Assembly (NCBI RefSeq): GCF_988242995.1
Contig: NZ_OZ547043.1
Reading direction: 5' to 3' (one strand)
Length of the DNA: 64,000 nucleotides
Shown piece by piece: positions 25,049 to 46,623 of the stretch; the first letter of the stretch is position 1, and every line of letters starts with the position of its first letter. The notes under the pieces are model-generated. The model was not told where the DNA came from. It did not search any database and saw nothing but the letters and a program-made list of their open reading frames with translations. Both the position numbers and the translations under genes were made by a program.

Positions 25049-25109
25049 CCGGACTAATCAGTGACGAATGGACGAATGCATTTTTGTCTGAAGCTCGTCA
25101 AAAAGTCAT

Positions 25110-25140
25110 CACCGCCGGTAACCCCGGCGGTTTTCTGTTT
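25110..25140. terminator. hairpin plus T-run after ymdF, abutting rutG 3' end
   Basis: ccgccggtaaccccggcgg stem followed by tttt. Confidence 0.5.
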
Positions 25141-28798: not shown

Positions 28799-30639
<1,841 letters not shown>

Positions 30640-30666
30640 ATCCTTTTCAGCCGCGTAATGGCTTGT

Positions 30667-30684
30667 TTGCAAAGCGGATGCCAG
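30667..30684 (-). promoter_or_regulatory. sigma54 (-24/-12) promoter of rut operon
   Basis: Minus strand reads CTGGCATCCGCTTTGCAA = TGGCAT-N5-TTGCA, ~25 nt upstream of rutA ATG. Confidence 0.6.
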
Positions 30685-30747
30685 TTTTTAAAAAGTGAAT
30701 GTTATTAATGTGTTAATGTTAAGTTGTCTAAAATATCTGGAAAAAAG

Positions 30748-30763
30748 TGGACTAAACGGTCAA
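30748..30763. promoter_or_regulatory. candidate RutR operator
   Basis: tggactaaacggtcaa resembles the TTGACCAnnTGGTCAA palindrome in rutA-rutR intergenic region. Confidence 0.4.
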
Positions 30764-30869
30764 AACAGTTGCACATAAAACATGCATCCGTGCGCGATGA
30801 AAGTGCAGAAGGTCGAGGCCGGGCAGGGGTTTTGCTATCCTGTTGCCAATCTACAAGAGGGGAGAGCGC

Positions 30870-31508
30870 ATGACGCAAGGCGCAGTGAAAACAACGGGTA
30901 AACGTTCGCGCGCAGTGAGCGCGAAGAAAAAAGCGATTCTTAGCGCAGCACTGGACACTTTTTCACAATTCGGTTTTCACGGCACAAGGCTGGAGCAGAT
31001 CGCAGAGTTGGCAGGCGTTTCAAAAACCAATCTGCTGTATTACTTCCCGTCAAAAGAGGCGCTGTATATAGCCGTACTGCGGCAGATTCTCGATATCTGG
31101 CTGGCACCGTTAAAAGCGTTTCGTGAAGATTTCGCCCCGCTGGCGGCGATCAAAGAGTACATCCGTCTGAAGCTGGAAGTCTCACGCGATTATCCGCAGG
31201 CTTCGCGCCTGTTCTGTATGGAGATGCTGGCAGGCGCGCCGTTGTTAATGGATGAACTGACGGGCGATTTGAAGGCATTAATTGATGAGAAATCGGCGCT
31301 GATTGCCGGTTGGGTCAAAAGCGGCAAACTCGCGCCGATTGACCCGCAGCATTTGATTTTTATGATTTGGGCTTCCACTCAACATTACGCCGATTTCGCC
31401 CCTCAGGTGGAGGCGGTGACAGGCGCGACGTTGCGCGATGAGGTATTTTTCAATCAAACGGTTGAAAACGTGCAGCGGATTATTATTGAGGGGATTCGAC
31501 CACGTTAA
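30870..31508 (+). CDS. rutR: TetR-family repressor RutR
   Basis: 212 aa from ATG 30870 (MTQGAVKTTGK), HTH region. Confidence 0.92.
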   Translation: MTQGAVKTTGKRSRAVSAKKKAILSAALDTFSQFGFHGTRLEQIAELAGVSKTNLLYYFPSKEALYIAVLRQILDIWLAPLKAFREDFAPLAAIKEYIRLKLEVSRDYPQASRLFCMEMLAGAPLLMDELTGDLKALIDEKSALIAGWVKSGKLAPIDPQHLIFMIWASTQHYADFAPQVEAVTGATLRDEVFFNQTVENVQRIIIEGIRPR

Positions 31509-37521: not shown

Positions 37522-37660
37522 CTCAAAATATTTTTACATTTTCTCATCATTATCACTACATTCCGCTTGTATTTTTCTTTGCCGTAATGATAATCGCTAT
37601 CACTGCGATTTACTTTTCTTTGCATAGATTGACTCAGAAAAACGTTTAAGGGTGGGTGGC

Positions 37661-38491
37661 ATGTTTGTTCCATTTCTCATTATGTTGCGCGAAGGACTTG
37701 AAGCCGCGCTGATTGTCAGTTTGATTGCCAGCTATCTTAAGCGTACCCAGCGAGGCCGATGGATTGGTGTGATGTGGATTGGCGTGTTGCTTGCCGCTGC
37801 GTTGTGCCTGGGCTTGGGTATCTTCATTAACGAAACCACCGGCGAATTTCCGCAAAAAGAACAGGAACTGTTTGAAGGTATCGTGGCGGTGATCGCCGTG
37901 GTGATCCTTACCTGGATGGTTTTCTGGATGCGCAAAGTGTCGCGCAACGTCAAAGTACAACTGGAGCAGGCAGTCGATAGCGCATTGCAGCGTGGAAATC
38001 ATCATGGCTGGGCGCTGGTGATGATGGTCTTTTTTGCCGTTGCAAGGGAGGGGCTGGAGTCGGTCTTTTTCCTGCTGGCGGCGTTTCAACAAGATGTCGG
38101 GATTTGGCCGCCGCTGGGTGCAATGCTCGGTCTTGCTACAGCCGTGGTGCTTGGCTTCCTGCTCTACTGGGGCGGTATTCGCCTCAATCTTGGTGCATTT
38201 TTTAAATGGACCAGTCTGTTTATTCTCTTCGTCGCCGCTGGGCTGGCAGCTGGTGCCATTCGCGCATTTCATGAAGCCGGATTGTGGAACCACTTTCAGG
38301 AAATCGCCTTCGATATGAGCGCGGTGCTCTCAACTCACTCGCTGTTTGGCACGCTGATGGAAGGGATTTTTGGCTATCAGGAAGCGCCAAGTGTCAGCGA
38401 AGTCGCCGTCTGGTTTATTTATCTCATCCCAGCGCTGGTGGCATTTGCGCTGCCGCCACGTGCAGGGGCGACAGCGTCTCGCTCCGCGTAA
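37661..38491 (+). CDS. efeU: ferrous iron permease EfeU (intact)
   Basis: 276 aa uninterrupted ORF from ATG 37661 (MFVPFLIMLREGLEA) with REGLE motifs. Confidence 0.85.
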   Translation: MFVPFLIMLREGLEAALIVSLIASYLKRTQRGRWIGVMWIGVLLAAALCLGLGIFINETTGEFPQKEQELFEGIVAVIAVVILTWMVFWMRKVSRNVKVQLEQAVDSALQRGNHHGWALVMMVFFAVAREGLESVFFLLAAFQQDVGIWPPLGAMLGLATAVVLGFLLYWGGIRLNLGAFFKWTSLFILFVAAGLAAGAIRAFHEAGLWNHFQEIAFDMSAVLSTHSLFGTLMEGIFGYQEAPSVSEVAVWFIYLIPALVAFALPPRAGATASRSA

Positions 38492-38548
38492 CAAATACGA
38501 CGCAAACTCTTGCTTAGTTACAACATACTTTAAAGGGATAGTCTCGTC

Positions 38549-39676
38549 ATGACCATTAACTTCCGCCGTAACGCATTGCAGTTGAGCGTGGCTGCGCTGT
38601 TCTCTTCTGCTTTTATGGCTAACGCCGCCGATATTCCGCAAGTCAAAGTCACCGTGACGGATAAGCAGTGCGAACCGATGACCATTACGGTTAACGCCGG
38701 GAAAACACAGTTCATTATTCAGAACCACAGCCAGAAGGCGCTGGAGTGGGAGATCCTCAAAGGCGTGATGGTGGTGGAAGAGCGAGAAAATATCGCCCCT
38801 GGCTTTAGCCAGAAAATGACGGCGAATTTACAGCCTGGCGAATACGATATGACCTGCGGTCTGCTGACTAACCCGAAAGGGAAGTTGATCGTTAAAGGTG
38901 AAGCAACGGCGGATGCGGCGCAAAGCGATGCGCTGTTAAGTCTTGGTGGTGCAATTACTGCATATAAAGCGTATGTCATGGCGGAAACCACGCAGCTGGT
39001 GACCGACACCAAAGCCTTTACCGACGCTATTAAAGCAGGCGATATCGAAAAAGCAAAAGCACTGTATGCGCCGACGCGCCAGCACTATGAGCGCATTGAA
39101 CCGATTGCTGAACTGTTCTCCGATCTGGATGGTAGCATTGACGCCCGTGAAGATGATTACGAGCAAAAAGCCGCCGATCCAAAATTCACCGGTTTCCACC
39201 GTCTGGAAAAAGCATTGTTTGGCGATAACACCACCAAAGGGATGGATAAGTATGCCGACCAGCTTTATACCGATGTGGTCGATTTGCAAAAACGCATCAG
39301 TGAACTGGCTTTCCCTCCGTCAAAAGTGGTCGGCGGTGCAGCCGGACTGATTGAGGAAGTGGCAGCCAGCAAAATCAGCGGTGAAGAAGATCGCTACAGC
39401 CACACCGATCTGTGGGATTTCCAGGCTAACGTTGAAGGCTCGCAGAAAATTGTCGATCTGCTGCGTCCACAACTGCAAAAGGCCAACCCGGAACTGCTGG
39501 CAAAAGTCGATGCCAATTTCAAAAAGGTCGATACCATTCTGGCGAAATACCGTACTAAAGACGGTTTTGAAACCTACGACAAATTGACCGATGCTGACCG
39601 TAATGCGCTGAAAGGGCCGATTACTGCGCTGGCGGAAGATCTGGCGCAACTTCGCGGTGTGCTGGGGCTGGATTAA
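38549..39676 (+). CDS. efeO: periplasmic iron-uptake protein EfeO
   Basis: 375 aa ORF with signal peptide. Confidence 0.93.
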
Positions 39677-39681
39677 GCGTT

Positions 39682-40953
39682 ATGCAGTATGAAGATGAAA
39701 ACGGCGTGAATGAACCGTCACGCCGACGTTTACTGAAAGGGATTGGTGCGCTGGCGCTGGCGGGAAGTTGTCCGGTCGCTCATGCACAAAAAACGCAAAG
39801 TGCACCGGGTACGCTTTCACCGGATGCACGCAATGAGAAACAGCTGTTTTATGGTGAGCATCAGGCAGGGATCCTGACGCCACAACAGGCCGCAATGATG
39901 CTGGTGGCGTTTGATGTGCTTGCCAGCGATAAAGCCGATCTTGAGCGGTTGTTTCGCTTGTTGACTCAGCGTTTTGCTTTTCTGACTCAGGGCGGAGCAG
40001 CACCAGAAACGCCAAATCCGCGCCTGCCACCACTCGATTCCGGCATTCTTGGCGGCTACATTGCGCCCGATAATCTCACCATCACATTATCGGTGGGCCA
40101 CTCATTGTTTGATGAGCGCTTTGGCCTTGCGTCGCAGATGCCGAAAAAGTTGCAGAAGATGACGCGTTTCCCCAACGACTCGCTTGATGCAGCATTATGT
40201 CATGGTGATGTGTTGCTACAAATTTGCGCCAACACCCAGGATACGGTGATCCATGCGCTGCGCGATATCATCAAACACACGCCGGATTTGCTCAGTGTGC
40301 GCTGGAAGCGGGAAGGGTTTATTTCCGATCACGCGGCGCGTAGTAAAGGCAAAGAGACGCCGATTAATTTGCTGGGTTTCAAAGACGGCACTGCCAATCC
40401 CGATAGCCAGAATGATAAGTTGATGCAAAAAGTGGTGTGGGTGACGGCAGATCAGCAGGAGCCTGCGTGGACAATCGGCGGCAGCTACCAGGCGGTGCGG
40501 TTGATTCAGTTTCGGGTGGAATTTTGGGACAGAACGCCGCTGAAAGAACAGCAGACGATATTTGGGCGTGATAAGCAAACCGGCGCGCCGCTGGGAATGC
40601 AGCATGAGCATGATGTTCCCGATTACGCCAGCGATCCGGAAGGGAAGGTGATTGCGCTGGACAGCCATATCCGGCTGGCGAATCCCCGCACGCCAGAGAG
40701 TGAGTCAAGTCTGATGCTGCGTCGTGGCTACAGTTATTCGTTGGGCGTCACCAACTCCGGACAACTGGATATGGGGCTACTGTTTGTCTGCTATCAACAC
40801 GATCTGGAAAAAGGCTTCCTGACAGTACAAAAAAGGCTCAATGGCGAAGCGCTGGAGGAATACGTTAAACCTATCGGCGGCGGTTATTTTTTTTCGCTGC
40901 CGGGAGTGAAGGACGCGAACGATTATCTCGGAAGCGCGTTATTACAGGTTTGA
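39682..40953 (+). CDS. efeB: Tat-exported DyP-type heme peroxidase EfeB
   Basis: 423 aa, twin-arginine signal [10 protein letters not shown]. Confidence 0.93.
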
Positions 40954-44659: not shown

Positions 44660-44853
44660 AAATTGTTGTTCCTGTCTTGCTGGAACGGGCGCTAATTTAG
44701 GGAAATCATGACCTGAGGTCAACAAACTTTTTTAAAAAATCGCGTGTTTATTCAAACTTCAATCAATATGCAGTTTTAATAAGCGAAATCTGCTTTTTTT
44801 GCCACCGACCACGGATTTGTTATGCTGGTGGCTTTTGTAGATCATAACGATAA

Positions 44854-45831
<978 letters not shown>

Positions 45832-45885
45832 TAAAGCATCTGGTTTCCTGCTATCCTTGGCGGGAATTGAATACAGGAGAGAGTT

Positions 45886-46623
45886 ATGTATCCCGTCGAC
45901 CTTCATATGCATACCGTTGCCAGCACGCATGCATATAGCACATTGAGTGATTACATTGCCCAGGCCAAACAAAAGGGCATTAAACTTTTTGCTATCACCG
46001 ATCATGGCCCGGATATGGAAGATGCGCCTCATCACTGGCACTTCATTAACATGCGTATCTGGCCGCGAGTGGTTGATGGGGTAGGGATCCTGCGCGGCAT
46101 CGAAGCTAACATTAAAAATGTTGATGGTGAAATTGATTGCAGCGGCAAAATGTTTGATTCGCTGGATCTGATTATTGCCGGTTTTCATGAGCCGGTTTTT
46201 GCGCCACATGACAAAGCGACCAATACGCAAGCGATGATCGCCACTATCGCCAGCGGCAATGTGCATATAATAAGCCATCCCGGAAATCCGAAATATGAAA
46301 TAGATGTTAAAGCCGTTGCTGAAGCAGCCGCGAAACATCAGGTGGCGCTGGAAATCAATAATTCCTCTTTTTTACACTCACGTAAGGGAAGTGAAGACAA
46401 TTGTCGTGCGGTAGCCGCAGCGGTACGTGACGCTGGAGGTTGGGTGGCATTAGGCTCGGATTCTCACACCGCGTTTACCATGGGTGAATTTGAAGAGTGT
46501 CTTAAAATCCTCGACGCGGTAGATTTTCCGCCAGAACGCATTTTGAATGTTTCTCCGCGCCGCTTACTGAACTTCCTTGAATCTCGCGGTATGGCACCGA
46601 TTGCGGAATTTGCAGACCTTTAA
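45886..46623 (+). CDS. ycdX: PHP-family zinc phosphatase YcdX
   Basis: 245 aa, HxH metal motif (DLHMHT). Confidence 0.93.

Follow-up and report, generated by a model that had tools for sequence, protein, structure and literature searches.

The divergent rutA-rutR control region in an Escherichia coli chromosome segment: sigma-54 promoter, RutR operator and a probable rutA start at a downstream ATG

The spacer that separates rutA, the first gene of the pyrimidine utilisation operon rutABCDEFG on the minus strand, from the divergently oriented rutR on the plus strand raises two questions: which of the regulatory motifs that can be read in it govern the two genes, and at which codon translation of rutA begins. 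We considered both in a stretch of 64,000 nucleotides (the window). In 5421 of 5426 complete E. coli genomes a 901-bp query around the spacer has a match, that in strain ECA64 being 100% identical; the window is a segment of the E. coli chromosome (hya-app-tor-rut-put-efe-csg-mdo), in which the genes run hyaB, app, csp, tor, cbp, agp, wrbA, rut, put, efe, phoH, ghrA, csg, mdo and mdtG. Around the spacer the annotations of ECA64 and K-12 MG1655 give the order rutG-A, rutR, putA, with rutA and rutR divergent. The two coding sequences that bound the region are as follows.

30870..31508, plus strand: rutR coding sequence from ATG 30870, encoding a TetR-family uracil-sensing repressor (annotation)
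29491..30582, minus strand: rutA coding sequence from the conserved start, 363 aa, MKIGVF... (PGAP in ECA64, TIGR03612, orthologue alignment and crystal constructs)

We are all but sure that this is a divergent rutA/rutR control region in which sigma-54, NtrC, an IHF-type bend and RutR take part, and that rutA most likely starts at ATG 30582. Over 341 bp the control region is 98% identical to that of K-12 MG1655. It resembles the sigma-54, NtrC-dependent K-12 rutAp in gene order and in its -24/-12 element, RutR box and proximal NtrC-like site, all three being identical base for base. Of the 12 substitutions relative to MG1655, seven are in the AT-rich stretch that runs from the RutR box to the promoter; another falls in the spacer of the distal NtrC-like site, and a further one changes A to V in a non-conserved N-terminal extension of rutA. 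The region is thus already well described and differs from K-12 at strain level only. What can be added to it is incremental, namely a rutA start codon further downstream and a conserved leader motif, and the re-identification of such a textbook-level regulatory region serves mainly as a positive control for recognising sigma-54 promoters and TetR-type operators from raw sequence.

The sequence-only reading had placed a -24 GG/-12 GC element on the rutA strand, and the 18-mer that it quoted, CTGGCATCCGCTTTGCAA, is indeed present at 30684-30667 of the minus strand. The promoter and the start that it predicts can be given as:

30668..30684, minus strand: sigma-54 promoter rutAp, CTGGCATCCGCTTTGCA (consensus match, K-12 identity, ChIP-seq site OS10, RpoN genomic SELEX, 79/79 loci)
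30657, minus strand: predicted rutA transcription start, 12 nt past the -12 C, which is 19 bp past the motif centre at 30676 (rule from PMC4591121)

The GG doublet lies at 30682/30681 (-25/-24) and the GC doublet at 30670/30669 (-13/-12), exactly 10 bp apart, and the core TGGCATCCGCTTTGCA has no mismatch to TGGCAY-N5-TTGCW, of which it is the sole exact match in the 64-kb window. About 0.30 such matches per window are expected by chance, and at least one turned up in 23 of 100 shuffles of the window; the consensus match by itself is only suggestive, not decisive. Much the same holds for the palindrome further towards rutR, where boxes with three mismatches are no commoner than expected (see below), and these two figures are what speaks for the view that both motifs are functionless and match their consensus in this AT-rich spacer by chance. 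We give this view practically no credit, as the sequence is identical to the sites that are bound experimentally in K-12, as both motifs are kept at fixed positions in 79 of 79 loci from many genera while their flanks diverge, and as published ChIP, gel shift and operator mutagenesis refute it. It is because of position, conservation and published experiments, then, that we judge the sigma-54 match and the RutR box to be real.

The comparison on which this rests comprises 80 rutA loci from one scan of species-representative genomes of the Enterobacterales (Escherichia, Enterobacter, Leclercia, Lelliottia, Klebsiella, Raoultella, Kosakonia, Phytobacter, Mangrovibacter, Buttiauxella, Pantoea, Erwinia, Tatumella and others), 79 of which were usable for the promoter and the RutR box. 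Upstream of rutA, all 79 have a -24/-12 element that departs from TGGCAC-N5-TTGCA at 0-2 positions, and across the orthologous loci the distance from the -12 C to the rutA ATG spans 42-171 nt, mostly 78-92. The spacer around both motifs diverges from locus to locus, with the sigma-54 element and the RutR box staying in place throughout.

For the promoter, the experimental record on the identical K-12 sequence bears out what had been proposed from sequence. Site OS10 of the sigma-54 ChIP-seq study of Bonocora et al. (2015) is CTGGCATCCGCTTTGCA on the minus strand, listed for rutA with a PSSM score of 9.96 and a FAT value of 6; the start predicted for it falls 19 bp past the motif centre and leaves 18 nt to the ATG annotated in K-12, and the EcoCyc status of the rutA sigma-54 promoter is given there as "predicted" (PMC4591121). 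The rutA-rutR spacer is also a strong genomic SELEX peak with reconstituted RpoN holoenzyme (71-73%), and in the accessible part of the supplement rutA occurs once, in a row with the sigma-54 promoter motif (PMC8743547). The further proposal, that expression is NtrC-dependent, agrees with published work: the operon's dependence on NtrC under nitrogen limitation is on record through citations in later papers. The literature search, which covered some sources in part, found no experimentally mapped rutA transcription start. A second, weak sigma-54 ChIP site of K-12, OA02 (CCGGCATGAACAATGCG), is absent from the 64-kb window at up to two mismatches; by coordinate conversion this antisense site would be expected near the 3' end of rutG in the ymdF-rutG spacer, at about 25060-25140.

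The partial palindrome that had been likened to a RutR box proved to be the published one. It is present at 30748-30763 and identical to the K-12 box (PMC2475637).

30748..30763, plus strand: RutR operator (RutR box), TGGACTAAACGGTCAA, centred at about -98.5 from the predicted rutA start (ChIP-chip, gel shift, operator mutant, 79/79 loci)

The box has three mismatches to the 16-bp semi-palindrome TTGACCAnnTGGTCAA (11/14 matching), with the A at position 4 and the T at position 13 present, and the window holds two matches of this quality against 2.85 expected, no more than chance would give. Table 1 of Shimada et al. (2008) nevertheless gives exactly this sequence, with the same 11/14 score, at -114.5 from the K-12 rutA start codon, on the strength of ChIP-chip and gel shift (PMC2475637). 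The rutA-rutR fragment is bound by RutR as a single complex with a KD of ~8.6 nM, from which uracil releases it with an I0.5 of ~9 nM (PMC2952853), and four substitutions (4 bp) in the box abolish the uracil-sensitive autoregulation of rutR; the same study places the box between the rutR transcription start and the sigma-54 rutA promoter, downstream of the former and upstream of the latter (PMC4325133). In the 79 usable loci the box stands at a fixed offset, with 85.5-87.5 bp between its centre and the -12 C in the Enterobacteriaceae-type arrangement and 94.5-96.5 bp in the Erwiniaceae-type. The Erwiniaceae-type loci (L035-L082; Pantoea, Erwinia and Tatumella) have two RutR-like boxes exactly 19 bp apart, at ~75 and ~95 bp upstream of the -12 C, where the Enterobacteriaceae have one. 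The second box is the promoter-nearer of the two, and the enhancer and distal box of these loci stand ~9 bp further from the promoter than in the Enterobacteriaceae.

Between and beyond these two elements lie three further candidate sites.

30770..30786, plus strand: NtrC-like site, promoter-proximal, TGCACATAAAACATGCA, 3 mismatches to TGCACC-N5-GGTGCA, centre at about -121
30791..30807, plus strand: NtrC-like site, distal, TGCGCGATGAAAGTGCA, 3 mismatches, centre at about -142, 21 bp from the proximal site
30703..30715, plus strand: IHF-like site, TATTAATGTGTTA, 1 mismatch to WATCAANNNNTTR, centre at about -52

With three mismatches, each NtrC-like 17-mer taken alone is no better than chance in the window. 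In ~72-75 of the 80 loci the pattern GC-N11-GCA recurs in fixed register, 23-24 bp ahead of the RutR box, and the distal TGCAC...GCGCA is kept at register -44 in the Enterobacteriaceae loci; motif and conservation together point to two putative NtrC sites at 30770-30807. A 2024 paper draws the sigma-54 start, NtrC sites and RutR box together in its Fig. 1a (PMC10891134); rutA is unmentioned in the main text and the one accessible supplement of an NtrC ChIP-seq paper (PMC4066584). The IHF-like site, likewise, is not significant alone, the window holding 77 matches of this quality to WATCAANNNNTTR; its position and sequence, though, are kept far better than in shuffles: a match with at most one mismatch occurs in 57 of 80 loci compared with 7% of shuffles, and in 69 of 80 its centre falls exactly 40 bp upstream of the -12 C, which makes 30703-30715 a putative site of IHF binding. 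Relative to the predicted start at 30657, the layout from the distal end inwards would therefore be NtrC-like sites at about -142 and -121, RutR at -98.5, the IHF-like site at about -52 and sigma-54 at -24/-12. Inside each family the spacing from enhancer through operator and bend to promoter is kept within 1-2 bp. Spacing held so closely across genera suggests that helical phasing matters for RutR to counteract NtrC, and it fits a phasing-dependent looping mechanism, of which it may be a sign and is no proof.

In promoters of the glnAp2 type, NtrC sites are arranged in tandem more than 100 bp ahead of the sigma-54 promoter, and IHF takes part in some of them, as in glnHp2. The rutA region shares this plan in its two 17-bp NtrC-like sites 21 bp apart (~-121 and ~-142) and in an IHF-like site between enhancer and promoter, but differs in having the operator of a TetR-family repressor directly between enhancer and promoter, and in a spacer that also houses the divergent sigma-70 promoter of the repressor gene (PMC4325133).

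From this arrangement a mechanism can be proposed. Sigma-54 RNA polymerase would occupy the -24 GG/-12 GC element (30684-30668) as a closed complex, with rutA transcription initiating near 30657. Under nitrogen limitation, phosphorylated NtrC on the tandem sites 30770-30786 and 30791-30807 would loop to the closed complex and convert it to an open one, probably aided by an IHF-type bend at 30703-30715 (~-52). When uracil is absent, a single RutR dimer would sit on 30748-30763, to be released by uracil. Since the box adjoins the proximal NtrC site and lies downstream of the divergent rutR start, RutR would autoregulate rutR and damp the activation of rutA; being 6-7 bp on the promoter side of the proximal NtrC site, it may hinder enhancer function rather than binding of RNA polymerase. 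Several of these steps have been published for the identical sequence, namely sigma-54 occupancy (PMC4591121), RutR binding (PMC2475637, PMC2952853), uracil release (PMC2952853) and operator-dependent autoregulation (PMC4325133). The start point, the exact NtrC and IHF sites and the interference of RutR with NtrC are what we infer from motif and conservation.

The role of RutR could be quite different if the rut operon were transcribed mainly from a sigma-70 promoter in the spacer, directly repressed by RutR, with the sigma-54 element secondary. RutR has after all been described as the repressor of rutABCDEFG (PMC2475637, PMC4325133), and the sigma-54 holoenzyme is transcriptionally inactive at most of its ChIP sites (PMC4591121). 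A two-hexamer scan of 30500-30950, however, found no sigma-70-like promoter on either strand, and the RutR box is ~100 bp upstream of the start rather than over a promoter. Moreover, neither deletion of rutR nor acetylation of RutR raised rutA mRNA in exponential phase (PMC10891134); removal of RutR did not induce rutA, and RutR is not the main brake in that phase. We consider direct repression of this kind very unlikely and keep to NtrC-activated transcription from the sigma-54 promoter, with RutR in a modulating part.

On the other side of the spacer, conservation brings out a further element that was not picked up by the scan.

30833..30841, plus strand: extended -10-like element, TGCTATCCT, candidate proximal rutR promoter (conservation)

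In 66 of 73 loci the rutR start codon is preceded, at a distance of 34-40 nt, by the pattern TGnTATG(C/A)T. In the window TGCTATCCT lies nearer to rutR than either the RutR box or the NtrC-like sites, and the published rutR promoter is on the opposite side of the box (PMC4325133); it is possible that the element marks a further, proximal promoter of rutR besides the published one.

Where rutA begins bears on how all distances from its start codon are read. The candidate signals are:

30637..30639, minus strand: K-12-annotated rutA ATG, 382 aa, probably not the real start (K-12 annotation)
30589..30594, minus strand: Shine-Dalgarno sequence GAGAGG of the conserved rutA start, 6 nt before its ATG (GAGG columns nearly invariant in 61 leaders)

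The longest rutA open reading frame (393 aa) opens at TTG 30672, within the -12 element; a start inside the promoter would precede the transcription start, which rules this frame out. To that extent the sequence-only reading argued soundly that a frame running through the promoter favours a shorter start, and its distance of ~25 nt from promoter to ATG holds for ATG 30639, which lies 27 nt past the quoted 18-mer. The ATG that it favoured is, however, itself probably too long a choice and not the real start of the gene.

We think it very probable that translation starts at ATG 30582 instead, giving 363 aa. PGAP calls this ATG in the 100%-identical strain ECA64; the NCBIfam RutA model TIGR03612 has its position 1 at residue 20 of the 382-aa form; and the alignment of all 80 orthologues begins at the same residue, that of MKIG. 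The frame upstream of MKIG is not conserved, as a stop occurs 1-6 codons upstream in many genera and the frame is closed or shifted in most, and even within the species strain SCPM-O-B-8794 has a CGA to TGA change that places a stop upstream of MKIG. Nine loci with short leaders are without the whole extension segment, the -12 C being only 42-47 nt from the ATG. The ribosome-binding signals point the same way, AAGGA standing only 1 nt from ATG 30639 and GAGG 6 nt from ATG 30582.

In favour of ATG 30639, a 382-aa protein and an 18-nt leader, K-12 RefSeq annotates 382 aa, no stop interrupts the frame in the window or in K-12, an AAGGA precedes the codon, and within the Enterobacteriaceae the variation in the first codons (MQDAAPR) is mainly at third positions. 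Crystal structures fall on both sides, 5WAN having been solved with the long form and 6SGG and 6SGL with the 363- and 364-aa forms. Against it stand the PGAP call, the profile that begins at MKIG, an extension that is interrupted in most genera and in one E. coli genome and missing altogether in nine loci, and the spacing of only 1 nt after AAGGA, as against 6 nt after the near-invariant GAGG, and we regard a start at 30639 as unlikely. With the start at 30582, the -12 C lies 87 nt upstream of the start codon and the 5' untranslated region would be ~75 nt. The K-12 reference rutA of 382 aa is then probably 19 codons too long, which affects expression constructs and the interpretation of the leader, as well as distances in the literature that are counted from the rutA start codon, such as the -114.5 of the RutR box.

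The segment that is annotated as coding in K-12 holds a conserved element, which lies within the leader when rutA starts at 30582.

30619..30656, minus strand: 5'-leader element ACGCGG...UGCA-GGA-UGCA...CCCCGU (nucleotide conservation, 61 leaders)

Its core, GCAGGA(U/A)GCA, reads here GCAGGAUGCA at 30637-30628 of the minus strand, with flanks CG..G and GC..CG. The core columns reach 94% majority identity among 61 distinct leaders compared with 66% at third codon positions of rutA in the same genomes, and the element is common to the Enterobacteriaceae and Erwiniaceae and missing in the nine short-leader loci. The core is a real conserved feature and the reading frame of the extension is not conserved; the element appears to be previously undescribed.

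One possible fold has a 6-bp outer stem, ACGCGG/CCCCGU, which would begin at about +2 of the predicted transcript and enclose a 4-bp UGCA/UGCA hairpin with GGA in its loop. In the proposed stems 81.6% of cells are paired and one pair covaries, being AU in 13 sequences and GC in 43, which probably goes back to a single evolutionary event. The outer stem is present in the minimum-energy folds of 34 species out of 61, the inner hairpin in those of 32, and the UGCA-GGA-UGCA hairpin is seen in both the minimum-energy and centroid folds of the E. coli leader. RNAalifold predicted no consensus structure for the 61 leaders, and the E. coli leader, folded as a single sequence, comes out less stable than its shuffles (z = +1.25); on these two results a strongly structured, riboswitch-like leader was rejected. 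An Rfam scan of 30450-30950 with E values up to 10 returned no match save a meaningless one of 12.6 bits to a Bacteroides sRNA. A leader peptide, MQDAAPR, was also considered and is disfavoured: the position of its start codon reads ATG, GTG, TTG, CTG, TCG, CCG, CAG, ATA or TAG in the Erwiniaceae, its length and stop context are inconsistent, its Shine-Dalgarno spacing is 0-1 nt, and the two "synonymous" variable columns coincide with the stem mismatch and the covarying pair.

The core invites comparison with the hairpins bound by CsrA/RsmA, for which SELEX gives RUACARGGAUGU with GGA in the loop (PMC4347634). Like these, the rutA leader core can present GGA on a 4-bp hairpin, and like CsrA targets with at least two GGA sites it has a second (A)GGA, 9 nt upstream. 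Unlike the SELEX consensus, the motif is without the ACA (PMC4347634), and unlike CsrA sites that overlap the Shine-Dalgarno sequence or start codon, it lies ~40 nt upstream of a Shine-Dalgarno sequence, GAGAGG, that contains no GGA. That the GGA hairpin might bind CsrA is only a hypothesis, and our literature search found no paper linking CsrA to rutA. Supplements of a CsrA CLIP-seq study, made in rich medium where rutA is silent, list a peak in the rutR coding sequence and none at rutA (PMC5694010). The rutR peak, at K-12 1074528-1074704, corresponds to 31156-31332 of the plus strand in the window when converted from the rutR start (PMC5694010).

Taken more broadly, the ~75-nt leader may hold a post-transcriptional element, a 5'-terminal stem-loop with one or two GGA motifs that was lost in some lineages, although we consider this rather doubtful. 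If true, such an element could serve as a binding site for CsrA or some other factor, or make the mRNA more stable, and would add a layer of control to pyrimidine catabolism beyond NtrC and RutR.

Two other parts of the window drew attention. A gene for a 447-aa hypothetical protein (37589-38932, minus strand) lies between putP and efeU, with ~1.2 kb free of annotated features between it and efeU (window 37589-40122). In the phoH-ghrA interval (44830-46520) we found only a DUF2726 gene and a tRNA-Ser; the corresponding interval of K-12 presumably carries pgaABCD, ycdT and an IS element.
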